From an uncultured Anaerolineae bacterium (GTDB lineage Bacteria; Chloroflexota; Anaerolineae; VGOG01): a stretch of DNA of 64,000 nucleotides. The notes below the pieces were generated by a model. That model did no database searches. It had not been told where the DNA came from and saw nothing but the letters and a program-made list of their open reading frames with translations. This document shows, in pieces, positions 43,401 to 58,686 of this stretch (position 1 is the first letter of the stretch; every line of letters begins with the position of its first letter). A program made the translations under genes and the position numbers. The stretch covers positions 1,289-65,288 of the forward strand of contig CAZVCJ010000004.1 of NCBI GenBank assembly GCA_964625745.1. Reading direction: 5' to 3'.

Positions 43401-45191
43401 TTCGGTCAGGTTATCCACCACCAACTGGAAGGGTGCATCGGCGGTGTAGGTGGTGTCGCCCTTGTAATACGGCGAGAGGTCCAGATTGTCGGGCACGTCG
43501 TCGTTGTCGTTGTCGCGGTCGAAGAGGTCGGGTGTGCCGTCGTTGTCCATGTCCGGTGGGAGAGCGCTTTCGGAGGCCCGGCCGGTGTTCCACTCGCGCC
43601 CGTCGTCAAGGCCATCCCTGTTGGTATCAAGCTCCGTGGGATCGCTGTACCACATCTTATCTTTGTAGGAGAAGCCGTTGATCTCCTCAGGATCCTCGAT
43701 GCCGTCGCTGTCGGAGTCGTCAGAGTCATCGGCGGTGCCCAGGATACATTCTTCGAAGTCGGTCAGGCCATCTTCGTCGGTGTCGCCGGTGTCATCGGGG
43801 TCACATTCGGGGGCGGAGGATTCGTTGTTGTCGTTGTTGTTGGAGGCAAGAGCAGGGAGTTGGATATTGGATATTGGGTATTGTGTATTGTGTGAGGTGT
43901 CTAGCGGGTTGAGGTTGGGATTCCAGTTGGGCTGGGTTAAGAGGGCTTCGAGGTCGCGCTGCATGTCGCTTTCCTGCTGAAGGGCTTCCTGTTCCTGGGC
44001 GCGTGTCTGCTGCTGCTCGAAGAATGCCGCCACCCGCAGGCTCTGCAACAGCGGCGAGAAAATCAGCGAGACGATCACGGTCACGGCCAACGCGATGTAC
44101 AGGCGACTGGAGCGTTTGTGGATCACAAGCATGATGGACAGAATCAGCGAGAAGACCAGTGGGATTGCAAAGCGGAGATCAGGGATTAGAGATTGGAGGT
44201 TGGAGATTGGAGACTGGAGATTGGGGGCTGCGGATCCTGACACCCCAGATCCGAAATCCGCATTCCGAAATCCGAAATCAATTGTCGCTTCGGCGCGGCT
44301 TTCCTGATCGTCCGGACCCGGTGGGAACTGGAGGCGCAGGATCTGGCGCAGAGGCAGGCCATCCGCACTGATCCACAGTTCGCCCTCGCCCGTCATCTTC
44401 ACGTAAGTCTTGGGCAGGTCCAGACTAACGCCGGGTGGCAGCTCCCCCTTCTCGGTCAGGTACTTCTCCAATTGGTCGCGCACATAAGCGGCGTAACTCC
44501 GCCCATCAACGTCAAACGTGAAACGTGAAATGTGAGGCGTGAGGCGTGAGTCCACGTTTTCACGCTTCACGTTCTTGGCCGCTGCCAGGAATGCCATGAA
44601 GTCGCCCTGGGGCGCGAAGAGGCCCGTGAAGTTGGGGATTTCCTGCCAGGCCTGCGTGTCCTGGCGGGCGTAGGCCCGGTCGCCATCCACCTTGATTTCC
44701 ACGCCGCTGCCGGGGTCCACCACGCTGCCGCCCTGCGACCACAAGGTCAGGTGCAGTTGCCGCTCGTGGAGGTCGGTTTCACCTTCCAGGTGCAGGGCTT
44801 CTTCTTTGCTCGTGCGGCCCACGTTGAGGATGGTGGGCTTGGGGATCACGGTCTGCTTGATGTCGGCCGTGAAGTGGTAGGCACCGGCCTGCTGGGCGCG
44901 CCGCCAGGCGGCCTGCACTGCGTGCTCTGGCGATGCCGCCGCAGTCACGGATGGCGCCTGGGCATACACCTGCTCGCTGGGAGCGCCCAGATCGGTGCTC
45001 TCCACAACCGATGCGAGCCGTGCCAGTGCGTCGTGAGCTCGCTCTCGGATTCGGTTTGCTCCTCCTTGCAGGGACGCGGCGATTGTGGGCAGTTCGCTGA
45101 GAACAGCCATCTGAGCGGCTAGTACCGCAACGCCAAGCACTACGGCGCACAATGCCAGAATCAGGCGATTGGGTGAGGATGGGTGCTTCAA
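31485..45191 (-). CDS. giant (4568 aa) membrane-embedded surface protein with TSP3-like Ca-binding repeats, LamG x2, Ig-like domains, a P-domain and a C-terminal TM anchor
   Basis: TTG start with GGAGG 10 nt upstream. Landmarks: N-terminal signal anchor; TM pair ~44045-44165; Asp-rich DxDxDG repeats ~43480-43830, ~40245-40612 and ~32030-32205; 5-7 TM helices ~41270-42010; two LamG/ConA-like domains ~37560-38850; PT linker ~35955-36075; proprotein-convertase P-domain-like ~32655-33040; C-terminus ...PVNRLELLASWLGLAALVVLAALAVALIWRRKT. Confidence 0.9.
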   Translation of the reverse strand: MKHPSSPNRLILALCAVVLGVAVLAAQMAVLSELPTIAASLQGGANRIRERAHDALARLASVVESTDLGAPSEQVYAQAPSVTAAASPEHAVQAAWRRAQQAGAYHFTADIKQTVIPKPTILNVGRTSKEEALHLEGETDLHERQLHLTLWSQGGSVVDPGSGVEIKVDGDRAYARQDTQAWQEIPNFTGLFAPQGDFMAFLAAAKNVKRENVDSRLTPHISRFTFDVDGRSYAAYVRDQLEKYLTEKGELPPGVSLDLPKTYVKMTGEGELWISADGLPLRQILRLQFPPGPDDQESRAEATIDFGFRNADFGSGVSGSAAPNLQSPISNLQSLIPDLRFAIPLVFSLILSIMLVIHKRSSRLYIALAVTVIVSLIFSPLLQSLRVAAFFEQQQTRAQEQEALQQESDMQRDLEALLTQPNWNPNLNPLDTSHNTQYPISNIQLPALASNNNDNNESSAPECDPDDTGDTDEDGLTDFEECILGTADDSDDSDSDGIEDPEEINGFSYKDKMWYSDPTELDTNRDGLDDGREWNTGRASESALPPDMDNDGTPDLFDRDNDNDDVPDNLDLSPYYKGDTTYTADAPFQLVVDNLTEDLPTFVEFQLRPTDPDHLWYAFNVLDWPQGDDQGQMQDTDGKTFYDLDHSTSHSPNDNGDVKLIPMLEIKTTGSPNNLPPQNDLEAYGISIMDLNEDGTDKAVYVPLVLVTEPKGSARVAFSGRMLYQPADQWGNAHQVRLVWVVQALVDVCERYEDGRCTSYEEKNEAEIVHTYDDEWKLTGLAVREDHGTDFAIVYEDPDVDDDLDDDSALMFLTRGLELTFLAGRDCEEWDEKDPDDPTDDECIRGNDELDITITEIYSRFNHTTNSGVSVTSTWRISDTAGNIMSVVTDTYPTMDEAVATVGMTEAVKILDDHFTPHVPVAPTLLFAREERFRSLNLDEDRVGASTITWSDDNHQLKLDLKPDDVEVQTVAGMNWAPYRYRDDAWEPYPIEDYWEELENRYEKDFADEYVDEEHPEDLRTGAVFVGQIYYLTLYTGVHVAVQSGGTLLTQKYQTSDRPIAAVMATFGAKAVVAVVQMWIMRNFLYSTKALEFLAQIVRSSQAGARGAIQPFGHTLGNLIAKWKNVGRWLGAKGAVTAGAMLVLAGLAVGVYFLTREYLGTNTEAQMAVHAIVGIALGYMLILSPLRMVVGMIRALTYSGVSVLSATTQVLKSSSQFIGMSRIAGLIGMIAGLGIVFGIFIYALCKNEGLRRGLGLSMLLAQTFAAAIVTIMLAVFSLTVIGAIIVGIMTLVDVLLWLTGAGFTITGVVTEAVAKTFFSFELAIDEEDDGLVKMGTLDSRLVNPERGMVPGAQFEFKTTITSTVIHELPREYWTSLYIWKYDKDQIRSTSFEYELDTKKKSMSTHLGDTNRVNPWHVSDAYEAWGRTFYKGWFDDDLSAISTVSEAGINRTVPLILSTGYALPGVECWAVLWVISWAIPVVVCVDRGLEGEADPADLGSNIVMDVFPNTLDEFVQVSGWASDLKFKDADGDGLMAQDYGGNDPDDTRWDTDGDGLSDAWELQMAAIRFDEGGYVFDPRDADTDGDGLSDQEEAFLGSDPNRPDTDGDGITDAAETEGWDFYYRYPEKTRIFSDPLNADADSDGMDDLFERTLHTECGKLDDESERRDCYNNNLFNPYIWNTNPIGVYTEVGDPDKVVKPTQTFPFTTTVQNNVETGSPLWVRGTTELEADPLTGFPLEMTFDIAKDKSQSLYTDLTVPAGTGNQTVTLTTDVKSQLHTPSVWAWDPWQTDSHATSYPKALSLAAVSVNGWNTAYAAVSREDYRVRGYRVSPAGITDSGVDVFAEAGWSATSEPAIACNDSGRCLVVYSYKNNYGTYWVTWRSATSNWGSLSLHQVESAGGECEAWGATVASDGDNFLVAWMRECSGDEQIKVRHVLANGDKSGGVLTLDSASNVSFPKLAWVGDRYQAVWERGSDIYTAYISGQSATEPEAVSASAASEWSPRIAYDPLSGRTLVIYTSRSGSNRSLRGRILAGSNTPDEFTVGNLSDQAGWEAAVSNDPVNGGWAVAWSLNGQYTVYSQGVGMNGELRGERGRTEAPGKSYLLDVTCAEPRIAALFHFDEEGDTACTFADSSGFDHDASCWQDYIPSGKEGKRGNAVYFEGHHETGGATFEEGAWIRAGGVGLSVSSYGITFWFKAECDTCGIYSVGDAAAFNYDDHDRDIYLLNGNLCAKLGEGNPNTTESEVICSSGKNFADGQWHHVANTFGGGVGGQHLYVDGKLRATGERSSSNLHTQSVIMGVAVGVQPCNTYGCDDKRFFKGYFDELTIYPRALSEGEVVDDYLGALVVYPFDEVSGAETFNNAARSGYGAAECSAGQCPQAGKEGIAYNAVKFDGTDDVITGADVPIAGSSFTIAFWAKREWTNRDEYIVSQGSAGSDRDLYIGFWSNNRFICAFDTTNYLVTSNQYSDTDWHHWACSYDFGTGQRTIYRDGVQVAQDTTARYYWGSGPLRIGKARWGNYFRGLVDELAVWPGVLSASEIKTLYQKVKALDDSVTECLVSRTTHDGEHLHINRTALHETTTPLGRSEQQVEDEVIVDGTLPTADITSLADDQHIGETGTLPIGGEARDNTYVTKVEVRVDGGAWQEADGAETWTWDWDTSAVGEGWHTLSVRANDPADNVGNPSSIGVFIDRTPPQLTVTEVRGKAWDDSQGRWWVWVKGTVEDSTNGSLYVLLQGQHRRRISPEEETHVRAGGGWTSLRFSAGDGSAHQWELNYALPAFDNEGNALPNPTGVYTLYMRARDDAGNYLPEAVYGVFEVDNTPPVADLQYMGPYTDAIACNDVTLTGVITDPGPVDSGVGILYVKFEPVAELWKSWYYYHSGRATLAESGWGITTTTWTYEMPDLEGFYELRLESHDVQPWPYHGGKAAVWNGMVDTAAPRAEPGLKWLSLPFGPTEVTCYVEDLNLDEDTFIGCPCPEDTWQRTYFHEISSWYSEVTTDTNRLVRITATCQVNGALPFLAHYVCDAYDHCTTATYPIDVPIPPTPTPWPPSEWGPTPTPTQEPTATPTPTPTPTPPPPLSLDSAVITPSNGTAFSTTAAFGVEGQAYAENYLQTLTVTVNSAPFYDTGWPDSPDPGAVTETTWTTSYTPLGEGYYTLNSEVSDWISQVQTTTHPITVTVDLQPPAPPTFDTTVITTARRAAQGAAVLSGNAADNFGVARVDVNPDDRGWGAASLTGEAISPVWRYTWPIDDADPDGVNYDVTARATDFASHTNATTATLLFDMQAPEAVTITLGYFDALGAYHPVEPRQTITDGNQLVIEWTLSTDGSGVAGYRVGWTDSPTNTEGTLYVPAGTAYSYTQVISEAHEVYAHVVSVDIYGNWQEQTEGPVYVDAPLTPDLIRTQLPTGLLYHGWMDSGCTQMGRSRSVADRAPTGASLSENQEFYATWDANALRLAWVGANWDVEGDLFIYLDTRSGGATQLLNPYGGPAPGIYLPGNLPELVTSEWPEFEQVRQSQTVAALQSMAMQADYLVWVVDSETAALWEWNEVTEGWDLSLWLTAEQYQWNNGITDLYLPFDLLDISNPATNSLGLLAAASEEDALRLWSAMPDRNLLNSVLAVNPLAAVQAATQRNFVLPNFYRWPSLGPLLCPYTEALQEPPTSQGFVDSDLRVELTVEPLGTTYALFGDDLFWQWETLFQESGPKSQQFTFLDNTHPPVGQDDVISYTLRVSNRGTSEALDVQAFVLAYSALSLPDGSRLDQGYMEYRQLNVGSVAPGDTVTVTFSGVVEVESNWRYERCVNVDGLPPEVCRQLLQWAILDGLVFDARNPFSGTTGIPTQPPLEWVWADHAVDIDPPQHVGIEVPKLVVGPGANTVRGYASDPSGVPLVEVEVRDPLGGVTVLNCPDAMPHDGQWTCEWNVVGSDGDEFELRARATDGYDHVSDWTIPWHVVVVDATPPTVALDDEARAAVDGQFIGPGGELLTGPISDTHSSVVVQVCREVDEETVCESAATLLSTQAPTDTAHFYDDVPTAPIVITGIITDVITATTYCGGGEITRTFTVADAFIVGDVDLGFNATHPAREEIVAELVSPSGTRALVIAPSGATYGFANYDVWLDDAASGPLHAPIQDDPTEPYFDRPAQPFSSLSTFIGEASQGMWQLNICDLNPLLNEGTYNRSRLSLTPQSAALSTAGRWNYPLPLIEGADGLSVTLSIYGLDGVGNRTPEPISLTYQLDVVPPALTTTVVITMMYELSPTLVLAGQVSDGGGVDEVYVRVDPPDAASYRDLTARVGEEWVYTLRPDTGGTYALWLEAHDLVGNIRLEGPLYVEVALSDSDGDSIPDDEDNCPLVSNPDQADADDDEAGDACDNCPNHANPGQEDLDGDGVGNACDDTANDLPTSTGSGSFTLQASAGYFSFIAGVGNPSPADAPSLDFLHGFFNFTIEGLAPGGTVEVTISLPDDMPPDTQYWKYGPTVANPANHWYQIPMGDNDGDNVITITITDGGDGDDDLVANGVITEPGGPGQPPPQPPVPVGGIIVPVNRLELLASWLGLAALVVLAALAVALIWRRKT
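43860..43894. repeat. period-7 array (TTGGATA type, 5 units) in-frame in the giant ORF
   Basis: Units: ttggata ttggata ttgggta ttgtgta ttgtgtg. Peptide: HNTQYPISNIQ. Confidence 0.9.
44172..44283. repeat. period-7 array of 16 units (TTGGAGA type switching to ATCCGAA type) in-frame in the giant ORF
   Basis: Units counted directly. Peptide: [33 protein letters not shown]. Confidence 0.9.
44507..44576. repeat. period-7 array (AAACGTG type, inverting to CACGTTT type) in-frame in the giant ORF
   Basis: Units: aaacgtg aaacgtg aaatgtg aggcgtg aggcgtg agtccac gttttca cgcttca cgttctt. Confidence 0.9.
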
Positions 45192-45475
45192 AAAAAGTGT
45201 GCCTCCTTCGATTCAAGGCCAACCAGCGATGGAGCATGTCACGCAGACCTGGGGAAAACGAGCAAGCGGCAACCATCAGGGTATATTGACCCTGATCTGT
45301 TGCCACCTGGGTGTTGCAGAACATCGTTCGAACGTTGAGCCAGCATCGCAGGGGGGGTATGCCATCTGGTACTCCGGTACTGCGGATGAACAAAGGGCCA
45401 TTCTGAAATTCTGTGCCAGTTTATCACAGTCGCGTCAAATGTCAAGTTTACGTATTCATTCACTCCAATGCCCCG

Positions 45476-46501
45476 TCAAGCCTCCCGCGCCACCAGCACT
45501 TTCAGCGTTCCAGGTTGGGCCGCGTGCCCGAAGGCGGCGAGCACCTCGGAGAGGGGATAGCGAGCCTGGATCAGAGGGGTAACCTCCACCAGCCCCCGCT
45601 CCAGTAGCCGCATCGCTGGAGCGAACGGCCCACAGCGCGAGCCGACCAGCGTGATCTCATCCACCACGGCCATAGTCAGATCCGCGTCGAGCGGCTTCTG
45701 TAACTTCCCCCCCAGAGCCCGCCCTGAGCAGGGTCGAAGGGTTGGGGGGGATTGAGGGGGGGCGTGGTAGGTGGATTTCAACACGATGGTGCCCCGGGGG
45801 CGGACGAGTCGCCGCGCGGCGGCGTATCCTCCCGGATGACCGGTCGCCTCGACGACGACGTCGGCCCCTCCCTGGACGGTCGCATCATCCAGCGCTGTGG
45901 GGATGCCTTGCCGCGCCACGATTTCCAGTTTCTCACGATGGTGTCCCACCACGGTCAGATGGCAGCCCGTGAGAGCCAACACCTGGGCGCAGAGCAACCC
46001 CAGCTTGCCGTCACCCACCACGATGACGCGGTCTGTGGGACGCACGTGTACCTGCTGGACGATCTCACAGGCGGCGGCCAGCGGCTCGGTGAAGACAGCG
46101 ACCTCGTCTGAGACGGCGTCGGGCACGGGATGGAGGTTGGTGATGGGCAAGGTCAAGTACTCGGCGAAAGCCCCGTCGCGGGTTCTGATGCCCAGCGTGG
46201 TACGATTGGGGCAATGGGTAGGGCGGTTGGCCCGGCAGGTGGGACAGGTGCCGCAAGCAACGTTGATCTCACCCACCACGCGGCGGCCTTCCCATGCCTT
46301 GGCCCCCGGCGCGCGCTCGACCACGCCCACGAACTCGTGGCCGGGAACGCCTCGGAACTGGTGGTATCCCTTCACCAGCTCCAGGTCGGTGTTGCACACC
46401 GCGGCCACGTTCACGCGGATGAGCGCCTCGCCTGGCGGCGGCTCTGGTGTGGGGTAGTCATTCACTAACTTCAGTTTTCCATCAAGCAGCAGTGCACGCA
46501 T
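45476..46501 (-). CDS. zinc-type medium-chain alcohol dehydrogenase/reductase family protein
   Basis: 341 aa. GHEFVG, CGTCPTCRANRPTHC, VVGDGKLG. Carries repeat 45707-45762 in-frame. Confidence 0.88.
   Translation of the reverse strand: MRALLLDGKLKLVNDYPTPEPPPGEALIRVNVAAVCNTDLELVKGYHQFRGVPGHEFVGVVERAPGAKAWEGRRVVGEINVACGTCPTCRANRPTHCPNRTTLGIRTRDGAFAEYLTLPITNLHPVPDAVSDEVAVFTEPLAAACEIVQQVHVRPTDRVIVVGDGKLGLLCAQVLALTGCHLTVVGHHREKLEIVARQGIPTALDDATVQGGADVVVEATGHPGGYAAARRLVRPRGTIVLKSTYHAPPQSPPTLRPCSGRALGGKLQKPLDADLTMAVVDEITLVGSRCGPFAPAMRLLERGLVEVTPLIQARYPLSEVLAAFGHAAQPGTLKVLVAREA
45707..45762. repeat. C7/G7 palindromic element with 'gccctgagcagggtcgaagg' core, in-frame in the dehydrogenase
   Basis: Sequence: C7-agagcccgccctgagcagggtcgaagggtt-G7-attga-G7. 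Peptide: PPQSPPTLRPCSGRALGGK. Same frame and orientation relative to its host as the subtilase copy. Confidence 0.85.
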
Positions 46502-46824
46502 GGCTGTTCCTCATCCTTCTTGTCAATTCCCCTGACCCTGGTGTGTTTCAAATGAGTTGGATAAGACGTCGTAGAAAAGTCCTTTGCTATTATATCCCAC
46601 CCAGCCGTTTTTGTCCAGCTTAACGGCTGGCCCCCAAATCAGTAGATCCAAAATCTCCAGCAGAGGCAGCTCCCATGCCGCTGGTCCGCGGGCGTGGGAG
46701 CCCGCCCTGCTCAAAACTTGGATCTACAGAGTCTACGAACGCCAACTTGTCTCTACAGACAAAGTGTGCTATACTTGGTTTGTCAGTCACTATCTCTGAG
46801 CAGGTAAACGATAGGAGACACTCT

Positions 46825-47152: not shown

Positions 47153-47162
47153 GATATGTATT

Positions 47163-47661: not shown

Positions 47662-49113
47662 TCAGTCAGGCTTCCACCGCAACTTCGGTTGCCTGGCCGC
47701 TCTGACCTCGTCCAGCCGCGTGACGGGGGTAGTTTGGGGCGCTCCGTGCAAGATGTCGGGGTTCTCCTGGGCTTCCCTGGCGATGTTGAGCATGGCCTCG
47801 GCGAAGGCGTCCAGGGTCTCCTTGCTCTCGGTCTCGGTAGGCTCGATCATCAGGGCCTCAGGCACGATGAGGGGGAAGTAGACGGTGGGCGGGTGAAAAC
47901 CGTAGTCCATCAGCCGCTTGGCTATGTCCAGCGTGTGGACGTCGGGGGCCTGCGACAAGGGTCCCGATAGCACGAACTCGTGCATGCAGGTGCGGTCGTA
48001 GGGCAGCGGGTAAACCTTCCTGAGCCTGGCCAGGAGGTAGTTGGCGGCCAACACCGCGTCCTCGCTGACCTGCCTCAAGCCCTCGGCTCCCAGCATCCTG
48101 ATGTAGGTGTAGGCCTTGATGAACACGCCAAAGTTGCCGTAGAAGGCCTTGACCCGGCCGATGGAGGCTTCGGGCATCTCCAGGTGGTAGGTTGGATATT
48201 GGATATTGGAGATTGTAGATTGGACTGCGATTTGGCCAGGCAAGTACTTTGCCAGTCGCTCTGAGGCGCCGACGGGGCCGGAGCCGGGTCCGCCCCCGCC
48301 GTGGGGGGTGGAGAAGGTCTTGTGCAGATTGTAGTGCAGCACGTCGAAGCCCAGGTCGCCGGGCCTGGCGATGCCCAACAGGGCGTTCATGTTGGCTCCG
48401 TCGCCATACATCAGGCCGCCGCACTGGTGGACGATTTCACAGACCTCCAGCACGTTCTCCTCGAACAGGCCCAGGGTGTTGGGGTTGGTCAGCATCAGGC
48501 CGACCACCGTGTCGTCGCAGTGGGCCTTCAGTTCCTCCAGGTGCACGTTGCCCCGCTGGTCGGATTTGATCTCCACCACCTGGTAGCCGCTCATGGCGGA
48601 GGAGGCGGGGTTGGTGCCGTGAGCCGAGTCGGGTATGAGGACTTTGGTGCGCTTTGTATCACCTCGCTCCTCGTGGTAAGCTCGCATCACCAGGATACCG
48701 GTGAACTCGCCGTGGGCCCCGGCCGCGGGCTGCAGGCTCACCGCTGCGAAGCCACCGATCCCCTTCAGGTACTCCTGCAGCTCGTACATGAGCCTCAGGT
48801 TGCCCTGGACAGTGCAGTGATCCTGATAGGGATGGGTGCGGGTGAAGCCGGGGAGCTTCGCTGCCTCCTCGTTAATCTTAGGATTATATTTCATGGTACA
48901 GGAGCCCAGCGGGTAGAAGCCGGTGTCCACGGCGTGGTTGAGCTGGGAGAGGTGGACGTAGTGGCGCATCAGGTCAATCTCGCTGACCTCAGGCAGCGGG
49001 AGGTCTTTCCGCAACAGCTCTTGCGGCAGCTTGGTCGCAGGCACATCGAGTTCTGGCAGGAAAACGGCCTTCCGGCCTGGCGAGCTGATCTCGAAAATCA
49101 AATGCTCGGTCAT
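47662..49113 (-). CDS. gcvPB: glycine dehydrogenase (decarboxylating) subunit 2
   Basis: 483 aa. [16 protein letters not shown] (PLP lysine), [23 protein letters not shown]. Confidence 0.95.
48185..48226. repeat. period-7 array (TTGGATA type, ~6 units) in-frame in gcvPB
   Basis: Units: tggtagg ttggata ttggata ttggaga ttgtaga ttggact. Peptide: [13 protein letters not shown]. Confidence 0.9.
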
Positions 49114-50501
49114 GGCGTCACCTCCTCCAAAGCCTCTACCAGGCTGTCTATCTCGGTCCTGGTGTTCATCTCCGTCACGCAGAGGAGCATGTGATTCTCC
49201 AGATGGGGATAGTCACGGCCCAGGTCGTAGCCGCCGATGATGCCCCATTCCAGCAGTGCCTGGTTGATCTCGCTGGGCGGCCTGGGGCAGCGGACGACGA
49301 ACTCTTTGAAGAAGGGCTTGTCTCCCACCAGCTCGAAGCCGGGGATGGCGGCGATCTGCCTGGCAGCGTAGTGGGCCTTGTGATAGCAAAGCTCGGCCAC
49401 CTGGCGTAGCCCGCTCTTTCCCAGGGCCGCCAGGTAGGCCCCGGCCGCCAGAGCACAGAGGGCCTCGTTGGAGCAGATGTTAGAGGTGGCTCTCTCGCGA
49501 CGGATGTGTTGCTCACGAGCCGACAGGGTCAAGACGAAGCCCCGTCGTCCTTCGGTATCCACTGTCTCGCCGACCAGCCGCCCCGGCATCTTGCGCATGT
49601 ACTCCTCCCGACAGGCGAAGAGGCCCAGATACGGCCCGCCGAAGTTGAGGGGGTTGCCCAACGGCTGACCCTCTCCCACCACGATGTCGGCCCCGCATTC
49701 GCCCGGAGGGGTGAACAGGCCCAGGGAGATAGGATCCACTGCGACCACGAGAAGCGCCCCGGCCTCGTGTGCCGCATCAGCTAATCTGTTCAATCCGTTC
49801 TCAGAATCCACTGACAGCAACTGGCCAAGGAAGTCTGGCTGCTGGATGATCAAGCAGGCGGTGTCGTCATCGAGTTGGAGGTTGGAGGTTGGAGGTTGGA
49901 AGTTGGAAGTTAGAGGTTGGGAGTTGGAACTCGAAACCCCAAACCCCAAACTCGAAACTTCCAGTTCTGGGCCTGGTGTGTAGGTGCGCAGGGTGGCGCG
50001 GTACTCAGGGTGCACGGTGGGGGAGACGACGATCTTGCGCCGTTTGCCACGGGAGACGTTCACTGCCATGATTGCGGCCTCGGCCAGGCTGGTGGCTCCG
50101 TCGTAGTGGGAGGCGTTGGCTACCTCCATGCCCGTGAGGGCGCAGACCATGCTCTGGTACTCGAAGATGGCCTGCAGCGTGCCCTGGCTGATCTCAGGCT
50201 GGTAGGGGGTGTAGGCGGTGTAGAACTCCGAGCGGCCGGTGATGTGACCCACCACACTGGGCACGAAGTGGTTGTAGGCCCCCGCGCCCAGGAAGCAGGC
50301 GTGGTGGTCGAGGTCGGCGTTCTCCTCGCTCATGCTTCTCAGCTCCGCCAGGATCTCCAGCTCGGATAGGGGAGGGGGCAGCTTAAGCTCAGGATAGCGC
50401 ACACTCTCTGGCACATCCAGGAAGAGGTCAGCGACGGTCTCCACCCCAATCTCGGCCATCATCGCCGCCCGGTCGGGGTCGGTATGGGGGATGTAGGACA
50501 T
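49110..50501 (-). CDS. gcvPA: glycine dehydrogenase (decarboxylating) subunit 1
   Basis: 463 aa. [33 protein letters not shown]-like ([19 protein letters not shown]). Confidence 0.95.
49874..49964. repeat. period-7 array of 13 units (GTTGGAG x8, then CTCGAAA/CCCCAAA x5) in-frame in gcvPA
   Basis: Units counted directly. Peptide: [28 protein letters not shown]. Confidence 0.9.
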
Positions 50502-50956: not shown

Positions 50957-53900
50957 CTACTCTTCTGCCACAGGGAAGCGGGTGAGAACTGTAGCCCACT
51001 CCTGGAGGAGCATCTTGTCGCCCAAAGAGAGCTCTTCCACCGGCTTGGTGGGTGGGACTTTGTCGTGGGGGAGGGGGATGATGCCGATTTGCACTCCCTC
51101 CCGGTTGTATTTCTGGTCAACGTAGGCCAGGCCAACCTGGAACCCTTCGGTGTCCAAGGCGCAACTGGTGACGCGGCCTATGTACTTGCCTCGCTTGTCA
51201 ACCACCGGGTCTCCCAGCTTGGCCATCCTCACCCCCTTCTCGTCCATGCGGAAACGAAGCAGCTCCATGTTCCTGGTGGCTTCTTTTTCCAGCAGGGTTT
51301 TCCTGCCGATGAAGTAGGGCTTGTGGAACTTCACGTAGGAGCCAAAGCCGGCCTCGATGGGAGAGATGTTGTACGGCCCGGCCAGATCGTGTCCGTGCAG
51401 CGGCAGGCCGGCCTCGGTTCTGGTCGAGTCTCTGGCGGCCAGGCCCGCTGGCTTCAGGTCATAATCCCGGCCTTTCTCCAGCAGCAGATTCCACATCCTG
51501 GGAGCGTTGTCGGGGTGCAGGTAGAGCTCGTAGGCGATGTCCTCTCCGGTGTAGCCGGTGCGGGACACGATGAGCTCCATGCCCGCCAACTCCGTCTCGA
51601 TGAACTCGGTTCGGCTGATCCGGGCCAGCTTCTCTCGCAGCTTTTCATCTTCAGTCAAGCTCTGGAGGATGGCCAGGGAATTGGGGCCCTGGATGGCCAA
51701 GTCAACCCGCTGGTCGTCCCCTGACGCCGGATCCTTCAAGTCGCGGATGATGGCGGGACCCTCGATCTCGATGTCCGGATGCTCTCTGTCTATCAGGCAT
51801 TTGCCGGAGTTGACGGCGTTCAGCCAGGCCAGGTCTTTCTCGGCGTTGGAGGCGTTGATCACCAGCATGTAGCGGTCCGCCGCCCGGCGGTAGATGAACA
51901 CGTCATCAATCACGTTGCCATCGGGGTCGAGGAGGTAGGAGTATTGAGATTGCCCATCCCCGATCCAGCGCACGTAGTTGGACGTGACCGCGTCGAGGAA
52001 AGCGGTGGCGTGCTCGCCGGCCACCTCCACCACTCCCATGTGAGCCACGTCGAACAGCCCCGCCGTCTCCCTCACGGCTCTATGCTCCTCGCCGACGCTG
52101 GTGTACCAGACCGGCATCTCCCATCCAGCGAAGGGTATCACTTTCTTCGTTAGCTTCAGATGCTCTTCGTAGAGGACGGTTCGCTTGAGCTCGCCTTCTT
52201 CTTGCCACTGCCACTCCTCCTTCTCCACCTCGGACCTGACGCTTTCCAGGCTCTTCTGGCCGACGAAGTAGGGCTTGGAGACGTGGAACAGGGAATCGTG
52301 GCCCGCTTGATAGAGGGAGAGGCCGATCGGAGTTTCGAGTTTCGAGTTTCGAGTTTCGAGTTTCGAGATTTTAGTTTCGAGTTTCGAGATTTGAGATTTG
52401 ATATTAGGTGTTGCATCTTCGTCTAGATCCTTCACCACCACCGGCCCCTCGACCTTGCGGAAGATGTCGTCTTCGTCGAACAGGATGTACCCGTCGGCGA
52501 GGCCCCGGAACCAGGCCTTCACCCTGTCGGTGTTCTCAGGATTGGTCATCACGACGTAGTGGTCACGGCCCCATTGGTCCGGCTCCAGGCGCAGGATGGC
52601 GATGCTATCAATGAGCTGCCCCTGGGCATCCAGCAGGAAGGAACGCTGGCTCTCGCCTGGTTGCAGCCTGGACACGTCGTTGGTGGAGACCTGCTGCAGG
52701 AAGGGCGTGGCCCTCTGGCCAATCACCTCCAGCAGTCCCATGTCTGACGTTTGACGTTTCACGTTTGACGTTTCACGTTTCACGCTCGACGTTTCACGCA
52801 AGAAGTAGTAATGTGGGTAGCCAATCCCCTGTGCTGGCGTCTCCACCTCCGCTCCCCTCGCCAGCTCTTCCACCTCAAGCTTCACTTCCTCCAGGATGTC
52901 CAGATCAATCTTCCCCCTCCACAGCGGCCCTGTCAGTCCGATGTAGCTGAAAGGCTTGACGTTGACGATGAGGCGGTGGATGAACTCGGCGATCTTGTCC
53001 ATTTCCGCCCTGCCCATCCCTCGCTGGGTGAGCCAGGGCGTACCCAGGCGGATGCCGCTGGCCTCGCTGGCGTCGGCGTCGTCGGGGATAGTGTTCTTGT
53101 TGACCACGATGCCCGCCAGGTCCAGGATGCGGGCTGCGATCTCGCCCTTGAGGGGGAAGCCCTCCGGGGACTTGAGGGGATTGAGGTCAATCACCAGGAG
53201 GTGGGTGTTCGTCCCGCCGTAGGCCAGCTTCAGGCCGCGCCTCTGCAGCCCGTCGGCCAGGGCCACGCAGTTCTCCACGATCCTGTGTTGCAGGCGTTTG
53301 AACTCTTCCGTCTGAGCTATCCTGGCGGCGACGGCCATGGCTGCGAACTTGTGCACGTGAGGTCCGCCCTGCCGACCGGGGAACACGGCGTTGTCTATCA
53401 GTTCGGCCAGGTCCTCGTCGGTGGTCATGATCACCGCTCCGCGCGGGCCGAAGAAGGTTTTGTGGGTGGTGAAGGTAGTGACGTCGGCGATGCCTACGGG
53501 ATTCGGGTAGGCGCCCGCTATGGCTAATCCTGCAGTGTGGGCGATGTCGGCCATGAGGAGCGCCCCGCAGGCGTCGGCGATCTCCCGGAACTTCTCCCAG
53601 TCGGGGGCCCAGGAATAGGAGGTGAATCCGCCCACGATGATCCTGGGCCTGTGCTCCAGGGCCAGCTCCATGATCTGGTCGTAGTCCAGCTTTTCGGTGG
53701 CCCTGCTGGCGGCGTAGGAGACCACGTTGTAGCGGCGGCCGGAGATGTTGAAAGGGCTGCCGTGGGTGAGGTGTCCGCCCTGGGGGAGAGCCAATCCCAT
53801 GATGGTGTCGCCTGGATCGAGGAGAGCGCTATAGACTGACAGGTTAGCGGGCGAGCCTGAGAGGGGCTGGACGTTCACGAAAATCTGGTCGGCGCTCACC

Positions 53901-54277
53901 CTCTCGTTGGCGAAACATGCAGCCACCCGCCTTTGGGCCAGGCACTCGATGAGGTCGGCGTATTCGACGCCCTTGTAGAACCGCCTGTCGGCGTAGCGCC
54001 TGTAGTTGGCCAGCTCGTGGTCGAACTGGAGGAGCAGTTCGATCTCGTCTCGGGTCATCTGCAGGCGGGGATAGCCCTCGGCGTAGATGTTGTTGAACAC
54101 GCTCCCCAGCGCCTCGCGAACCGGCTTGGGGCAGTAGCTCTCCGAGGGAATCATAATCAGCTTCCTGGCCTGCCTCTCCTCCTCGAAGGCGATCAGGTCG
54201 GCCACATCGGGATCCACCTCGGCCAGGTCCTTGCCGAAGACGAGGTCCCAATACTCTTGGCTTTTTTCTCTCTTCAT
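50957..54277 (-). CDS. fusion ORF: serine hydroxymethyltransferase + degenerate GcvT-like module + complete aminomethyltransferase (GcvT)
   Basis: aa 1-~490 SHMT (PSESYCPKPV, GGHLTHG, TTHKTFFGPRG). aa ~512-690 GcvT-like remnant (FLQQVSTNDVS...; ...FHVSKPYFVGQKSL). aa ~695-1106 GcvT (FAGWEMPVWY, GLFDVAHMG, VSRTGYTGE, KFHKPYFIGRKTL). Confidence 0.88.
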   Translation of the reverse strand: MKREKSQEYWDLVFGKDLAEVDPDVADLIAFEEERQARKLIMIPSESYCPKPVREALGSVFNNIYAEGYPRLQMTRDEIELLLQFDHELANYRRYADRRFYKGVEYADLIECLAQRRVAACFANERVSADQIFVNVQPLSGSPANLSVYSALLDPGDTIMGLALPQGGHLTHGSPFNISGRRYNVVSYAASRATEKLDYDQIMELALEHRPRIIVGGFTSYSWAPDWEKFREIADACGALLMADIAHTAGLAIAGAYPNPVGIADVTTFTTHKTFFGPRGAVIMTTDEDLAELIDNAVFPGRQGGPHVHKFAAMAVAARIAQTEEFKRLQHRIVENCVALADGLQRRGLKLAYGGTNTHLLVIDLNPLKSPEGFPLKGEIAARILDLAGIVVNKNTIPDDADASEASGIRLGTPWLTQRGMGRAEMDKIAEFIHRLIVNVKPFSYIGLTGPLWRGKIDLDILEEVKLEVEELARGAEVETPAQGIGYPHYYFLRETSSVKRETSNVKRQTSDMGLLEVIGQRATPFLQQVSTNDVSRLQPGESQRSFLLDAQGQLIDSIAILRLEPDQWGRDHYVVMTNPENTDRVKAWFRGLADGYILFDEDDIFRKVEGPVVVKDLDEDATPNIKSQISKLETKISKLETRNSKLETPIGLSLYQAGHDSLFHVSKPYFVGQKSLESVRSEVEKEEWQWQEEGELKRTVLYEEHLKLTKKVIPFAGWEMPVWYTSVGEEHRAVRETAGLFDVAHMGVVEVAGEHATAFLDAVTSNYVRWIGDGQSQYSYLLDPDGNVIDDVFIYRRAADRYMLVINASNAEKDLAWLNAVNSGKCLIDREHPDIEIEGPAIIRDLKDPASGDDQRVDLAIQGPNSLAILQSLTEDEKLREKLARISRTEFIETELAGMELIVSRTGYTGEDIAYELYLHPDNAPRMWNLLLEKGRDYDLKPAGLAARDSTRTEAGLPLHGHDLAGPYNISPIEAGFGSYVKFHKPYFIGRKTLLEKEATRNMELLRFRMDEKGVRMAKLGDPVVDKRGKYIGRVTSCALDTEGFQVGLAYVDQKYNREGVQIGIIPLPHDKVPPTKPVEELSLGDKMLLQEWATVLTRFPVAEE
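52330..52399. repeat. period-7 array (GAGTTTC type, 10 units) in-frame inside the GcvT-like remnant
   Basis: gagtttc x4, then gagattt tagtttc gagtttc gagattt gagattt gatatta. Peptide: NIKSQISKLETKISKLETRNSKLETP. Confidence 0.9.
52747..52802. repeat. period-7 array (ACGTTTC/G type, 8 units) in-frame at the SHMT/GcvT-like junction
   Basis: Units: acgtttg acgtttc acgtttg acgtttc acgtttc acgctcg acgtttc acgcaag. Peptide: RETSSVKRETSNVKRQTSD. Confidence 0.9.
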
Positions 54278-54493: not shown

Positions 54494-54994
54494 CTACCGC
54501 AGGATCAGCGGCAGGTACAGGTAGTAGCCCCAAAGCACATTCACCGGCGTCGTGCGCTGGGTGGTCGTGCCATCCCCGAGTTGACCAGACGAGTTACGGC
54601 CCCAGCACTTGCCCCCGCCGCCGGTCAGGGCGCAGGTGTGATACCAACCCGCCGCAATCGCGGCCACACCGCTCGCCAGGCCGCTCACGTTCACGGGCGT
54701 CGTGCGCCGGGTGGTCGTGCCGTCGCCGAGTTGACCATAGGTGTTGTCGCCCCAGCACTTGACCCCGCCGCCGCTGGTGAGGGCGCAGGTGTGATACCCA
54801 CCCCCCGCAATCGCGGTGGCGTTGGCGGCGATGGCCAACGGCAGTCCGCCAAGTGGCGCGCCTAGAGGGTTTCGGCCAGGAGAAGTGGCAGCCAGGCCTG
54901 GGACCTGGGCGTGGACGCTGCCGGCCAGCAGGGTCAGCAACACCCATACACCGATCAAACTGTTCAGACGCTTGAAATGACAAATGGGTTTCAT
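54494..54994 (-). CDS. small secreted RCC1-repeat protein
   Basis: 166 aa with a signal peptide. Two repeats of [31 protein letters not shown]. Ends [11 protein letters not shown]. Confidence 0.7.
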
Positions 54995-55188
54995 TTCCTT
55001 TCCTCCTCTTTTTGAATGACCACCGTTTTTTGGAGCACCATTTGGGCTCCCCGCTATTCCTCAATTCGATCACTTGCCTAAACGTTCATACTCTCCCTCC
55101 TAATCAGTTCCACATGCCTCGGCAAATCCTCGCCCCTGGCCCAGGCTGCTTGGCTTTAGCCGGGCAGCTCCATTGCCCAATTCACATT

Positions 55189-55560: not shown

Positions 55561-55569
55561 GGTCTTACC

Positions 55570-56163
55570 TCATGGTCTGGCTGGAAGCAACTGACCTTTT
55601 GCACCGATCTTAAGGCTATGTTTCTCCATTACACGCTCCAGGCGATTCTCCTCGATGAGCGCCTCTATCTCCTCCTGATGGTCCAGGTAAAAACTGATGG
55701 CATCAAAAACGCCAGCAGGAGGTAGGTGGGGATAGGCTTCCAGAATTTCATCGAGTGTCTCGCTGGCCTTGTAATGCAACACGATGGCGCGCACCGGCAC
55801 GCGCGTTCCCTTGATGATCGGTTCGCCACCGGCAATGCCAGGCACGCGAACAATGTAAGGATGTTCCGTGGGCCTTGTTTCTAACTCAGCTACAAGCGGG
55901 CTTGCCTTTCCCATGATGCTCGTCTCCGTATCCACTTCGCCACGCTTATACTCCGCTCTCGCTTCCCTGATACTGGCCAAGTATTCGGGGTCGGACGACT
56001 CGCTGACGGTCTCCATCAAGTTCTCGAAGTCATCAGCACTTAGCAACACAACTATGGGGAGACCATCCTTCTCAATGAGCAGGCGATCTTTGCTGCGCCA
56101 TATCTCCTCAGCCAGTCGTTCAAAATCCATCTTGGCTTGTTCAAGACCGATCATCTTTATCAT
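55570..56163 (-). CDS. antitoxin candidate: Phd/YefM-like N-terminal domain fused to DUF433
   Basis: The ORF track starts at 56238, inside a heptamer array. ATG 56163 follows GAGGAGGA. N-terminal: ...LLIEKDGLPIVVLLSADDFENLMETV. C-terminal: IAGGEPIIKGTRVPVRAIV..Y.....EILEAYPHL. Confidence 0.7.
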   Translation of the reverse strand: MIKMIGLEQAKMDFERLAEEIWRSKDRLLIEKDGLPIVVLLSADDFENLMETVSESSDPEYLASIREARAEYKRGEVDTETSIMGKASPLVAELETRPTEHPYIVRVPGIAGGEPIIKGTRVPVRAIVLHYKASETLDEILEAYPHLPPAGVFDAISFYLDHQEEIEALIEENRLERVMEKHSLKIGAKGQLLPARP

Positions 56164-56177
56164 CTCATCCTCCTCTT

Positions 56178-56261
56178 CTGGAAGTTGGAAGCTGGAAAGT
56201 GGAAATTGGAGAACCAATCTCCAATATCCAATATCCAATATCTAACCTCCAGCTTCTCAGT
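56178..56261. repeat. period-7 array of 12 units with a strand switch at ~56213 (NTGGAAR x5, then TCCAATA-type x7): a long imperfect palindrome at a gene junction
   Basis: Units: ctggaag ttggaag ctggaaa gtggaaa ttggaga accaatc tccaata tccaata tccaata tctaacc tccagct tctcagt. Followed by tcagtgtt x2, which encodes the last residues of ORF 56257-57411. Confidence 0.9.
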
Positions 56262-57411
56262 GTTTCAGTGTTTCCACATGCCTCGCCAAATCCTCCCCCC
56301 TGGCCCAGGCTGTCTCCACCAGGGCGTACAAGCCGCCGGAGACCAGGGAGTGGCCGCCCAGGACGATGGGGATGGGAGCTGCGATGGCCGCCTGGGTGAA
56401 GCGGCGCACCCAGGGGTCGCTGATTTTCTCCGGCTGGCGCAGGTCGGAGTAGAAACGGTCGGCAGCGGAGGGCCAGATTTGCCGATGGGCAAAGAGGACA
56501 CGGCTGTCCAGAAAGGCGGCCCGGCTCATCTCCGCCAGGGTAGCGAAGAATCTCTCCAGTCCCACTTCCTCCAGATAGAATCCCAACAGGGACAGAGCCT
56601 CTCCCCGCGCCTGACGGCCACTGGCGCGCATGCCCCGCTCTTCTGAGAACAGGCGCACCCGGCAGGCTGTCTCGGACTCCAGGTAAGCCCAGGTCGAGGC
56701 CGACACTCGCCCTGCCACCAGAACTTCAGCCTCACGGTCGGTGAACAACTTCAGCGCCAGCTCGATGTGAGAAGTATCTAGCTCCAGGCTGTCCAGGTAG
56801 CGTCGGGTATGGGCACCTACGCCGGGATGGGGCTTCAGAGTCATCAGGTCACTGGGGGTGTCAACGTCCAACTGAGTAGCAGCGTTGCGGGGCAGTTCCT
56901 TACACGGCAGGTCGGCCCTCTTCACCAAGCGCCAGGCGAGATCGTTGTCAAGGGTGAGGGTCAAGGACTCTATCGAATTGATGGCTTCAGCAGGGGCAAA
57001 GGCGGCGAAGTCGGTGGAGTAAAAATTGTTAGCGATGACGAGCTCGTCAGCGGAGAGGAGGGTTTCGGCGATGCGGCCCATTTCCTTGGTGGAGAGCAGG
57101 GCGCCGCTTCCCCCTCCTATGTAGAAGACTTTGTCTATGTCATTCTTGTTGATCAGTTCGTGCAACCGCCGCCCAAAGTGGAATTCCTCTCCGGGTTTCC
57201 CCAGTTCGATGTGCACTGGCTTTCCTTGTAGCTTCTCGGCCAGGGAAGCGGAATTGGTGGCCAGCACGATGGGGCCGATGGCTTCGACGGCGAGAGCCCT
57301 CTCAATGGTGTCGAGGGTGATGGCCTGGCGAGCCAGGGCCACCATCCTCTCCACCTCGCTCCTCTCGCTGGAGCCTGTCATGATCACCAGGGACACCTTC
57401 GAACCGGGCAT
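56257..57411 (-). CDS. hypothetical protein; the N-terminal half resembles a MobA/CofC-like nucleotidyltransferase fold
   Basis: 384 aa. VFYIGGGSG..., QLDVDTPSDL. The C-terminal ~190 aa is not recognised. Confidence 0.55.
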   Translation of the reverse strand: MPGSKVSLVIMTGSSERSEVERMVALARQAITLDTIERALAVEAIGPIVLATNSASLAEKLQGKPVHIELGKPGEEFHFGRRLHELINKNDIDKVFYIGGGSGALLSTKEMGRIAETLLSADELVIANNFYSTDFAAFAPAEAINSIESLTLTLDNDLAWRLVKRADLPCKELPRNAATQLDVDTPSDLMTLKPHPGVGAHTRRYLDSLELDTSHIELALKLFTDREAEVLVAGRVSASTWAYLESETACRVRLFSEERGMRASGRQARGEALSLLGFYLEEVGLERFFATLAEMSRAAFLDSRVLFAHRQIWPSAADRFYSDLRQPEKISDPWVRRFTQAAIAAPIPIVLGGHSLVSGGLYALVETAWARGEDLARHVETLKH

Positions 57412-57430
57412 ATCGAGCTCACCTAATCTT

Positions 57431-57465
57431 GGGGGATGTTGGATATTGGGTATTAGAGATTATAG
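57431..57465. repeat. intergenic period-7 array (TTGGATA type, 5 units)
   Basis: Units: gggggat gttggat attgggt attagag attatag. Confidence 0.85.
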
Positions 57466-57495
57466 ACCGCGCCCCGCTTTTTGTCAAAAGGTGAA

Positions 57496-58686
57496 CTATT
57501 GGGTTGTCTCGGTGAGAGGATGCACAGCCACGACCTGCCCGTCTTCGAGGTAGACCCTGGTCACCCGCGGCAGGATGCTGGTGGTCACTTCGTAGTTGAT
57601 GGTTTCGGCCCAGGCAGCCACTTCCTCAGCGCTGATCGCGTCGTTGCCTTGCCGCCCCAGGAGCACCACTTCGTCATCCTGCTGCACGTCGGGGATGTGG
57701 CTGGCTTTCACCACAAACTGATCCATGCAGATCCGTCCTACGATGGGGGCGCGCCGGCCATGGATGAGCACCTGCCCTCTGTTGGAGAGAAGGCGATGGT
57801 AGCCGTCGCCGTAGCCGACGGGCACCAGGGCCACGCGGGTAGGCTCGCTGGTGGTATAGGTGCAGCCGTAGCTGATGCAGGAGCCAGTGGGGAGGGTACG
57901 CACTCGGGCCACCCGGCTCTTGAGGGTCATGGCCGGGCGCAGGGGGATGGTCGGCTTCTCTTCACTTGAAGGACGCAGGCCATAGAGGGCAATGCCGCAG
58001 CGCACCATGTCCAGGTGTGTCTGCGGCAGGGTCAGAGTAGCTGCACTGTTGGCCACGTGTTTGATAGGGATGATGAAACCCGCTCCCTCTAGTTTCTTCA
58101 CCACTTCGAGGTAGGTCTGAAACTGTTGAAAGGTGTATGCCTTGTCCGCCGCGTCGGCCATGGCGAAGTGGGTGTAGATGCCCTCCAGGATGAGGCCGGG
58201 CAGTTCGGATATGGCCTGGACGAAGTCTGCCACTTCATCAGGCAGCAGCCCGAAGCGACCCAATCCCGTGTCCACCTTGACGTGGATAGGGAGCACTTTC
58301 CCTTGATGAAGAGCTGCGGCAGAGAGGGCCTGGGCCTGTTCGGGGGTATTCACGGTGGGGGTTAAATCCCAGCGGACGATGGTTTCCGCCTGGGCTGGCA
58401 GAGTGTAGCCCATGATCAAAACGGGAGCCGTGATCCCCGCTTGTCGCAACTGGACGCCCTCCAGAGTGCGATGCACCGCCAGGCGGCTGGCCCCATTATC
58501 CAGGGCCGCCTCAGCTACCGGTACCGCGCCATGGCCGTAGCCGTTGGCCTTGACCACGGCCATCAACTCTGTCTTCTCCCCAATGAGTCGCTTGAGCTCT
58601 CGTGCATTATGAGCGATGGCGTCCAGGTCTATCTCGGCCCAGGTCAGGCTGACGTTTGACGTTTCACGTTTGACGTTTACATCCAT
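57496..58686 (-). CDS. alr: alanine racemase
   Basis: 396 aa. WAEIDLDAIAHN, AVVKANGYGHG (PLP lysine), YGLRP, GYGDGY. N-terminal 12 residues are encoded by a heptamer array. Confidence 0.92.
   Translation of the reverse strand: MDVNVKRETSNVSLTWAEIDLDAIAHNARELKRLIGEKTELMAVVKANGYGHGAVPVAEAALDNGASRLAVHRTLEGVQLRQAGITAPVLIMGYTLPAQAETIVRWDLTPTVNTPEQAQALSAAALHQGKVLPIHVKVDTGLGRFGLLPDEVADFVQAISELPGLILEGIYTHFAMADAADKAYTFQQFQTYLEVVKKLEGAGFIIPIKHVANSAATLTLPQTHLDMVRCGIALYGLRPSSEEKPTIPLRPAMTLKSRVARVRTLPTGSCISYGCTYTTSEPTRVALVPVGYGDGYHRLLSNRGQVLIHGRRAPIVGRICMDQFVVKASHIPDVQQDDEVVLLGRQGNDAISAEEVAAWAETINYEVTTSILPRVTRVYLEDGQVVAVHPLTETTQ
58651..58678. repeat. period-7 array (GACGTTT x4) forming codons 3-12 of alr
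   Basis: Units: gacgttt gacgttt cacgttt gacgttt. Peptide: MDVNVKRETSNVS. Confidence 0.9.

Follow-up and report, generated by a model that had tools for sequence, protein, structure and literature searches.

We analysed a window of 64,000 nt (the whole stretch of DNA, positions 1,289 to 65,288 of contig CAZVCJ010000004.1, assembly GCA_964625745.1) from an uncultured Anaerolineae bacterium of the phylum Chloroflexota. Its minus strand carries, in this order, an amidohydrolase gene, alr, a gene for a 384-aa protein, a Phd/DUF433 gene, a fusion of SHMT and GcvT, gcvH, gcvPA, gcvPB, a zinc alcohol dehydrogenase gene and an open reading frame (ORF) of 4568 aa. The subject of this report is a set of short arrays of head-to-tail 7-nt units (heptamers) that occur along this region, most of them inside the genes and in the frame of their hosts.

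Arrays, defined as being at least 21 nt long, were located in the 64-kb window with Tandem Repeats Finder (TRF) and a scan for self-match at a lag of 7. There are 17 period-7 arrays, compared with 0.13 on average and never more than 1 in Markov-2 shuffles of the same sequence, and the same scan at the other periods from 4 to 12 yielded 0-8 arrays each. The excess of period-7 arrays on which a preliminary description of this DNA depended is thus present, as far as these 64 kb are concerned. Fourteen of the arrays fall at 43.8-58.7 kb, and the remaining three at 2387-2410, 21403-21427 and 31263-31283. Their units match at 79-95% in TRF and the repeats are therefore imperfect; the elements that they form measure 21-112 nt, varying by unit number, the longest being 112 nt. 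In the 64 kb of genome examined, the NNTCCAA family is found at nine sites, ACGTNAA at three and GAAACTC at two; the recurring families (NNTCCAA, GAAACGT, GAAACTC and ATCCGAA) were also met in relatives. Summed over all arrays, the 715 nt have a GC content of 46%, against 60% for the window and about 80% at the third codon positions (GC3) of the host genes, meaning that host codon usage has not shaped them. A scan of the window showed no overlap between any array and an Rfam family. All ten period-7 elements of the preliminary description were recovered at the positions that it gave or a few bases off, and TRF and the lag-7 scan returned the same heptamer families. The elements are the following:

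43859-43894 (minus strand): TATCCAA/TACCCAA array of the NNTCCAA family in the 4568-aa ORF, encoding SHNTQYPISNIQL
44172-44283 (minus strand): composite of an ATTTCGG/ATCCGAA array beside a TCTCCAA array, in the 4568-aa ORF
44507-44576 (minus strand): palindromic pair of ACGTGAA-family arrays in the 4568-aa ORF, encoding KNVKRENVDSRLTPHISRFTFDVD
48185-48226 (minus strand): NNTCCAA array in gcvPB (ORF 47662-49113)
49872-49964 (minus strand): palindrome of a GAGTTTC/GGGTTTG arm followed by a CCTCCAA arm, in gcvPA (ORF 49110-50501)
52327-52407 (minus strand): GAAACTC array in the SHMT-GcvT fusion (ORF 50957-54277), encoding PNIKSQISKLETKISKLETRNSKLETPI
52742-52802 (minus strand): GAAACGT/CAAACGT array in the SHMT-GcvT fusion, encoding RETSSVKRETSNVKRQTSD
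56178-56261 (minus strand): palindromic pair of NNTCCAA arrays with 35-nt arms and a 5-nt loop, intergenic
57431-57465 (minus strand): NNTCCAA array, probably in the 5' untranslated region of the 384-aa ORF
58649-58679 (minus strand): CAAACGT/GAAACGT array at codons 3-12 of alr (ORF 57496-58686), MDVNVKRETSNVS
2340-2470 (plus strand): composite insert in a glutamate-synthase-like ORF (1751-4330), in which NNTCCAA heptamers alternate with a 24-nt element, CCTTCGNCNANNCTCAGGNCAGGC, present three times
21368-21427 (plus strand): composite insert of heptamers, 24-nt element and heptamers in hisA (ORF 21114-21977), inside the His_biosynth domain
31263-31283 (no strand assigned): short CGGGTTT array, intergenic, beside a tRNA gene (31321-31394)

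Within 43.8-58.7 kb, 12 of the 14 arrays lie inside ORFs and in the host frame (gcvPB, gcvPA, the SHMT-GcvT fusion, alr and the 4568-aa ORF) and two are non-coding; for the whole window the coding, in-frame fraction is 14/17, and for the window together with four relatives it is 35/45. Counted as elements, two of the ten described before are intergenic, as that description had implied. One of them (56178-56261) stands after the stop of the 384-aa ORF and before the GAGGAGG ribosome-binding site of the Phd/DUF433 gene. The other follows a perfect sigma-70 consensus, TTGACA-17-TATAAT (12/12, 57487-57459 on the minus strand), and precedes the ATG at 57411. Most elements are inverted pairs of arrays. 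Inverted-repeat search and folding bore out the three palindromes proposed earlier, in which the array switches strand midway: as RNA, the hairpins have predicted energies of -37.3 kcal/mol (44507-44576, z = -2.9), -29.4 kcal/mol (49872-49964, z = -1.7) and -37.9 kcal/mol (56178-56261, z = -4.9). Many coding arrays are single-armed and have no predicted structure (z about 0). In the composite at 44172-44283 the two arrays are partly complementary, and the encoded peptide directly precedes a predicted membrane helix.

The arrays are probably translated within their host proteins. In GcvPA (residues 2-457) and in GcvPB alike, the Pfam domain GDC-P extends across the array, and the SHMT and GCV_T domains flank both arrays of the fusion. 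In the 4568-aa ORF the GC contents of codon positions 1, 2 and 3 are about 0.62, 0.40 and 0.80, and the frame is unchanged in every segment between and beyond the arrays. In alr, a GAGAGG sequence precedes the ATG, and there is no in-frame ATG, GTG or TTG between the array and the conserved LTWAEIDL motif. As the flanks are halves of one domain in the same frame, and alr offers no alternative start, the genes do not appear to end or begin at their arrays, and the 7-residue periodic peptides announced in the preliminary description are indeed found in the ORF translations. Predicted tryptic peptides derived from the arrays include QTSDMGLLEVIGQR, ETSNVK and NSKLETPIGLSLYQAGHDSLFHVSK. By inspection, peptides such as SNLQPPT and ISNIQYP contain proline and lack an a/d pattern, and are not heptads of the coiled-coil type.

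A further argument for translation comes from stop codons. A pure GAAACGT unit holds a TGA, which tandem repetition places in every frame. We compared five ACGTNAA arrays in coding orientation from three genomes, namely those of SHMT-GcvT and alr in the window, of gcvPB and SHMT-GcvT in one relative (L085) and of alr in another (L088). The in-frame T-N-A triplet reads TCA in 7/7 units, and the out-of-frame units read TGA or TAA in 12/16. Each unit of the array at 52742-52802 with a potentially in-frame TGA has TCA or TCG instead, and at 44507-44576 the in-frame TGA is avoided through a shift of 1 nt. Stop avoidance thus takes the form of a 21-nt superperiod, produced by a G-to-C change, that is locked to codon phase; such a superperiod is not expected of an untranslated array and therefore supports translation. 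The read-through in a single frame that had been proposed agrees with all of these observations. The accompanying claim that period 7 should be strongly counter-selected in coding DNA does not hold: on a given strand about 69% of all heptamers (78% with the composition set to 60% GC) have no stop in any of the three frames, so that a 7-nt unit is compatible with an ORF provided that copies change by threes, and only the change in copy number is constrained.

The same sites were compared in four related contigs (L085-L088) of the same gene order, whose GcvPA is 80-88% identical to that of the window and whose flanking protein is 79-93% identical (a divergence of about 8-20%). These contigs carry heptamer arrays at the orthologous sites of gcvPA, gcvPB and SHMT-GcvT; the alr array is present in L088 and absent in L085. 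The unit families at orthologous sites (TCTCCAA, TTGGAAG, AAACTTC, GGCAAGR and ACGTGAA), their orientations and their lengths differ, and the arrays are again often inverted pairs. Among the matches listed, the closest named homologues are metagenome-assembled genomes (MAGs) of Anaerolineae, and relatives at 70% identity or less among those listed from a scan of contigs have no arrays at these sites. An apparent split of SHMT-GcvT in L088 was considered as an array frameshift and rejected, being due to Ns in the scaffold; likewise, a cluster member that seemed truncated at its array (P0124) is a fragment at a contig end.

In an alignment of 120 GcvPA homologues, the native segment at the array site is 25 aa long (xDLxVVGDDDLTxELDDLKALLDDD) and is present in all homologues at 76% identity or less and in four closer ones. 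About 60 closer homologues have repeat-encoded peptides of several types in its place, one series measuring 22, 29 and 36 aa, and the array types are interspersed on an unbootstrapped neighbour-joining tree. The GcvPB array sits between LPGPIVVK and YHLEMP, where distant relatives have an 18-aa loop and eight close ones a 28-aa Cys-rich segment (EKCDCHKEREDPC); in array-bearing GcvPB the segment measures 24, 31, 38 or 45 aa in 19 sequences, with a few other lengths. All array-bearing homologues, about 60 for GcvPA and about 30 for GcvPB, are full-length and in frame. The native GcvPB segment, which is Cys/His-rich in P0141, P0148, P0150, P0156, P0167, P0170, P0172 and P0180 and in the more distant P0208, P0223 and P0234, is possibly a metal-binding knuckle, and is dispensable in the lineages that bear arrays. 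In some distant relatives it has grown into long CxC/acidic repeats that reach 76 residues.

The SHMT-GcvT fusion is conserved in the relatives. That of L087 (5818-9540), at 1240 aa, holds between its SHMT and GcvT parts a further GcvT-like domain, which is complete. In the window, where the fusion is 1106 aa long, and in three relatives, two parts of this middle domain are missing, and arrays or other small repeats lie exactly at both junctions: the array at 52327-52407 stands in place of about 115 residues, and that at 52742-52802 marks the other deletion junction. The preliminary description had left it between loop insertion and replacement, and the comparison favours the latter, since repeat-free relatives hold 25 aa at the site in GcvPA, 18-28 aa in GcvPB and large parts of a domain in SHMT-GcvT. 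The arrays are therefore mostly replacements of dispensable native segments, with a net gain or loss of length, not pure insertions. When the P-proteins are aligned with the Thermus P-protein structure 1WYT, both arrays fall in gaps, and in a low-confidence AlphaFold model of GcvPA (shallow alignment, mean predicted local distance difference test score of 56) the array is predicted as a coil between two strands.

A second small element accompanies the heptamers. The 24-nt sequence seen in the composite inserts occurs in eight copies in the window, compared with 0.05 expected:

2365-2464: three copies of the 24-nt element
5766-5789: one copy
5888-5911: one copy
10801-10824: one copy
21382-21405: one copy
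45717-45740: one copy

It is in frame in the glutamate-synthase-like gene, in hisA and in the alcohol dehydrogenase gene (PTLRPCSGRA), is flanked by or nested in NNTCCAA heptamers or C7/G7 palindromes, and is most often preceded by ...CAAC. No exact match was found in 88 other loci examined. Some relatives have an 8-aa insert of the same kind, PSTKLRA(D/G), inside the heptamer array of GcvPA. At other sites of the same enzymes, relatives have further small in-frame inserts, some of them of a PPxxGGxxG type; those noted are AVSPCGLTTRG, APGPWALSPVRPKYRAQGPR, G(H/R)(V/A)LS(P/L)SKG and C/G-rich palindromes of the PPxVPPN(L/F)GGE kind, carried by P0047/P0062, P0058/P0062, P0028/P0037/P0051/P0063, the alr of L085/L088 and the GcvPB of P0160/P0162. 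These sequences suggest several further families of very small repeats, and the clade tolerates a number of such families inside its genes.

Other features of the window can be described briefly. In the 4568-aa ORF (31485-45191, minus strand) a hydrophobic segment lies at the N-terminus, a second membrane helix follows the arrays, and a long region is acidic and rich in D/N. Its first 630 residues have no Pfam match, and no homologue was found at the syntenic position in the relatives examined; the gene 3' of the alcohol dehydrogenase gene in L085, considered as a candidate, is polA. No glycine riboswitch lies upstream of the gcv operon. At 54536-54816 (minus strand), a short ORF upstream of the operon contains a 150-nt tandem repeat that is unrelated to the arrays and codes for RCC1-like repeats (YHTCAL...). 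Beyond the end of an aminotransferase ORF (17961-19103), TRF also reports a 43-nt tandem repeat (19204-19385; 4.2 copies, 93% match), which is partly self-complementary, GGGGCGAGGGGGCAAGTTCCCTTTCCCTCGCAGGGAAAGGGTT.

Period-7 arrays also occur outside this clade. In other Chloroflexota there are ten in 21 kb of a Chloroflexia MAG (L081), and others in a Roseiflexaceae locus (L061), in Leptolinea (L065) and in one further locus (L034); these have families of their own, e.g. CTGAAAG, CGCACTC and CCAGTAA, and several lie inside long open frames. Unit families of the window type occur at other sites in relatives as well (L010), and period-7 arrays are rare or absent in most of the other loci fetched. 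The trait seems widespread in filamentous Chloroflexota. A scan of metagenome contigs with five NNTCCAA units as the query returned, among the matches listed, at least 83 arrays at at least 80 loci of 32-69% GC. Among these matches, on unrelated contigs, arrays fall within the domain span that Pfam assigns to QueG, YmdB, TsaD and HisA and within the PHP domain of DnaE. Others are found beyond the matched domains: after a partial GCV_T in an SHMT-GcvT, in the linker of a GT2 glycosyltransferase and in the zinc ribbon of a class-II aminoacyl-tRNA synthetase, 5' of its core domain; most of the remainder are outside genes or 5' of the first domain. In-frame heptamer arrays in core enzymes are thus rare yet widely distributed, and in the clade of the window they are the majority (35/45). 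A synthetic SNLQ repeat peptide had two matches in a protein search, and a hypothetical ORF of the cyanobacterium Moorena carries the same NLQPPTS repeat.

We think it probable that the arrays are heptanucleotide repeats akin to the short tandemly repeated repetitive (STRR) sequences of cyanobacteria, filtered by selection and persisting as passengers at permissive sites. Slipped-strand mispairing would lengthen and shorten them, and hairpin or template-switch events would make or remove an inverted arm and flip the orientation at one site. In a gene-dense genome, arrays would survive only where they are tolerated, that is in surface loops, interdomain linkers, decaying domains, N-termini and short intergenic spacers. 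In coding sequence, only stop-free versions and changes of three units (21 nt, or 7 residues) would pass selection, and each coding array would come to give a polar peptide with a 7-residue periodicity. A native segment, once overwritten, could not be restored; the site can then only stay occupied by an array, which would act as a ratchet and account for persistence at orthologous sites while family, orientation and length turn over. The low GC content of the arrays and the chemically unrelated peptides found at one site argue that the peptides are passengers, presumably neutral or slightly deleterious, and not functional modules.

Several observations sit uneasily with this interpretation. 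Slippage in place does not explain why a handful of unit families keeps turning up at unrelated sites and in different genomes, that of Moorena among them. Ten of the 13 elements lie at 43.8-58.7 kb, which is 23% of the window, and the gcv operon is array-rich in all relatives; such clustering is not predicted by a purely neutral model, unless old arrays were inherited. In the NNTCCAA family, the sense orientation that gives the SNLQ-type peptide outnumbers the other by 14 to 3, which shows that either the product is under some selection or the process has a strand bias. A coding filter alone would be too weak, as about 65% of heptamers are stop-free on both strands at the GC content of the window, and the GcvPA tree that displays the interspersed array types lacks bootstrap values. 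Family recurrence, clustering near gcv and the orientation bias together leave room for delivery or targeting and for some selection on the product.

Delivery by a dedicated or mobile process, be it a tiny non-autonomous element, gene conversion or an enzyme that targets heptamers or hairpins, with slippage only tuning the length later, is a reading to which we give a minor share of our belief. It would account for the few unit families shared by the 13 sites of the window, the relatives, many metagenome contigs (32-69% GC) and Moorena, for the prevalence of inverted array pairs, for the deviating GC content of the arrays, and for the second and clearly dispersed 24-nt element, nested in or flanked by heptamers and present as an 8-aa insert within the GcvPA arrays of some relatives. 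However, the heptamer arrays show no fixed length, terminal repeats or target-site duplications at the junctions inspected, the native GcvPA site holds plausible seeds for slippage (CTGGAAGTT, GATTTGGAG), and no transposase or reverse-transcriptase candidate came up, no search aimed at these having been made. An extended version, in which one sequence- or hairpin-specific process is common to unrelated filamentous bacteria (heterocystous cyanobacteria, Moorena, Beggiatoaceae and filamentous Chloroflexota) and has become a general protein-remodelling engine in this Anaerolineae clade, strikes us as rather improbable. If it were true, core enzymes would repeatedly have lost loops, a helix, a Cys-rich knuckle and whole sub-domains to cassettes tunable in 7-residue steps, and hairpins would have been placed in operon spacers.

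It is improbable that the arrays are selected modules, either tunable loops and linkers or RNA hairpins that set the stability, processing or translation of the operon mRNA. The retention of the same sites across relatives despite sequence turnover and the bias toward polar S/N/Q/P/T peptides would fit such a role, as would the strong hairpins at 44507-44576 and, directly upstream of a ribosome-binding site, at 56178-56261, and the array between a consensus promoter and a start codon; tandem repeats in Borgs have also been argued to create useful disordered regions (PMC9879509). Yet each site is native or array-free in some close relatives, many coding arrays lack predicted structure, the peptide families found at one site are chemically unrelated (SNLQPPT, LEVGSWR, ETSNVKR, GKRQEAR), conserved native elements were replaced and not added to, and the ratchet accounts for persistence without function. 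Contingency loci, in which the gain or loss of a single 7-nt unit switches genes on and off, are in our view very improbable. The formal requirements of phase variation are present, as the unit length is not divisible by three and the arrays lie in coding sequence and in one 5' untranslated region, and heptanucleotide phase variation has been reported in Haemophilus (PMC8262952). Nevertheless, no frameshifting copy-number variants were found: four assemblies are identical through all arrays, the array-bearing GcvPA and GcvPB homologues are without exception full-length and in frame, with lengths in 7-residue steps, and the apparent split gene of L088 is explained by its Ns. Moreover, the hosts are housekeeping enzymes and not surface or restriction genes, and imperfect units lower slippage rates. 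That the arrays are artefacts, through mis-assembly or through true gene models that stop and restart at them, is scarcely credible and already largely refuted, even though repeats can cause mis-joins in metagenomic sequence and the alr array lies at the extreme N-terminus. The GcvPA protein occurs unchanged on 12 contigs, and four contigs match the window at 100% identity over 4.6-7.4 kb, through the arrays as well; these are ENA, JGI and Logan assemblies of two runs made with different assemblers, from samples that are possibly not independent. With identical contigs, and arrays (at most 112 nt) that are shorter than a read, mis-assembly does not explain them, and the domain halves in one frame, the codon-phase-locked stop avoidance and the lack of an in-frame start between the alr array and its motif speak against interrupted genes.

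Heptanucleotide repeats are the most abundant simple repeats of long unit in many bacteria. This locus and its relatives form a natural time series, in which sites of essential enzymes are seen native or array-bearing, in various families and orientations and at lengths three units apart. The series bears on the origin of the repeats (slippage, template switching or delivery), on the selection filter in coding DNA and on the extent of dispensable enzyme surface; it shows that heptamer repeats can take over surface loops and linkers of core genes and leave the genes intact. In Chloroflexota proteins, low-complexity peptides of the SNLQPPT, ETSNVKR and SKLETR types are repeat-derived, and are best masked in alignments, phylogenies and structure prediction. 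The preliminary description knew of no account of such arrays read through as protein in glycine-cleavage, racemase or SHMT genes; ORF-internal heptamer arrays as such are not unprecedented, having been described for TAACTGA repeats (PMC4679880), although our literature searches found no report of heptamer repeats in Chloroflexota or Anaerolineae, nor in these genes. What is new is the host phylum, the density in housekeeping enzymes, the replacement at orthologous sites with turnover of family and orientation and with 7-residue steps, and the phase-locked stop avoidance.

Comparison with known systems places the arrays nearest to heptanucleotide repeats. Mazel et al. (1990) reportedly described the STRR sequences in heterocystous cyanobacteria. 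These form arrays of a few to about 15 copies in a handful of dispersed families (the units of STRR1-3 are CCCCAGT, TTGGTCA and CAACAGT), and are mainly intergenic. The arrays described here resemble them in their 7-nt head-to-tail units far above chance, in having few families at many sites and in their filamentous hosts. In contrast, they belong to another phylum, have other units, are mostly inverted pairs, and are not predominantly intergenic, about 80% being coding and in frame (14/17 and 35/45). The TAACTGA direct repeats of marine Beggiatoaceae, some cyanobacteria and Bacteroidetes are about 85% intergenic, just upstream of start codons, and the intergenic copies differ between strains by indels in 7-nt increments (MacGregor 2015, PMC4679880). 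About ten ORF-internal arrays are in the stop-free orientation and encode LSVISYQ, mostly in small hypothetical proteins, insertion being tolerated mainly at protein peripheries (PMC4679880). They too are heptamer arrays at many sites, of one family, a minority of which are read as a 7-residue repeat in ORFs; unlike them, our arrays are mid-protein in conserved enzymes and at orthologous sites across species, with family turnover and 21-nt steps. The G-quadruplex-forming GGGNATC heptamers of Xanthomonas and Nostoc, which are under-represented in genes (Rehm et al. 2015, PMC4692102), are likewise genome-wide and variable in copy number, but our units contain no runs of G, and they are not under-represented in genes.

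Two further systems share the in-gene position or the nesting, and not the unit. Rickettsia palindromic elements (RPEs) are said, after Ogata et al. (2000), to be inserted in frame in protein-coding genes. As hairpin-capable selfish repeats that occupy fold-compatible sites of conserved genes and keep the frame they resemble our arrays, which also lie at permissive sites; they differ in their fixed size of about 100-150 nt, without a tandem 7-nt unit or length change in unit steps. The defined length, terminal inverted repeats and target-site duplication of RPEs or miniature inverted-repeat transposable elements are not features of our arrays, no duplications being seen at the junctions inspected. 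Elhai et al. (2008) reportedly described small dispersed repeats (SDRs) in Nostoc, 21-27 nt long and nested in tandem heptameric repeats. The 24-nt element is similar in its nesting in heptamer arrays and small palindromes; it belongs to another phylum and has copies in frame inside genes, and the likeness covers this element and not the arrays. Finally, the intragenic repeats of Borg elements have perfect units that are all divisible by three and create low-complexity disordered segments (Schoelmerich et al. 2023, PMC9879509). Both are fast-evolving nucleotide repeats in ORFs that add low-complexity, probably disordered peptide; in the Anaerolineae arrays, by contrast, the units are imperfect and 7 nt long, and the frame is kept only when they change three at a time.

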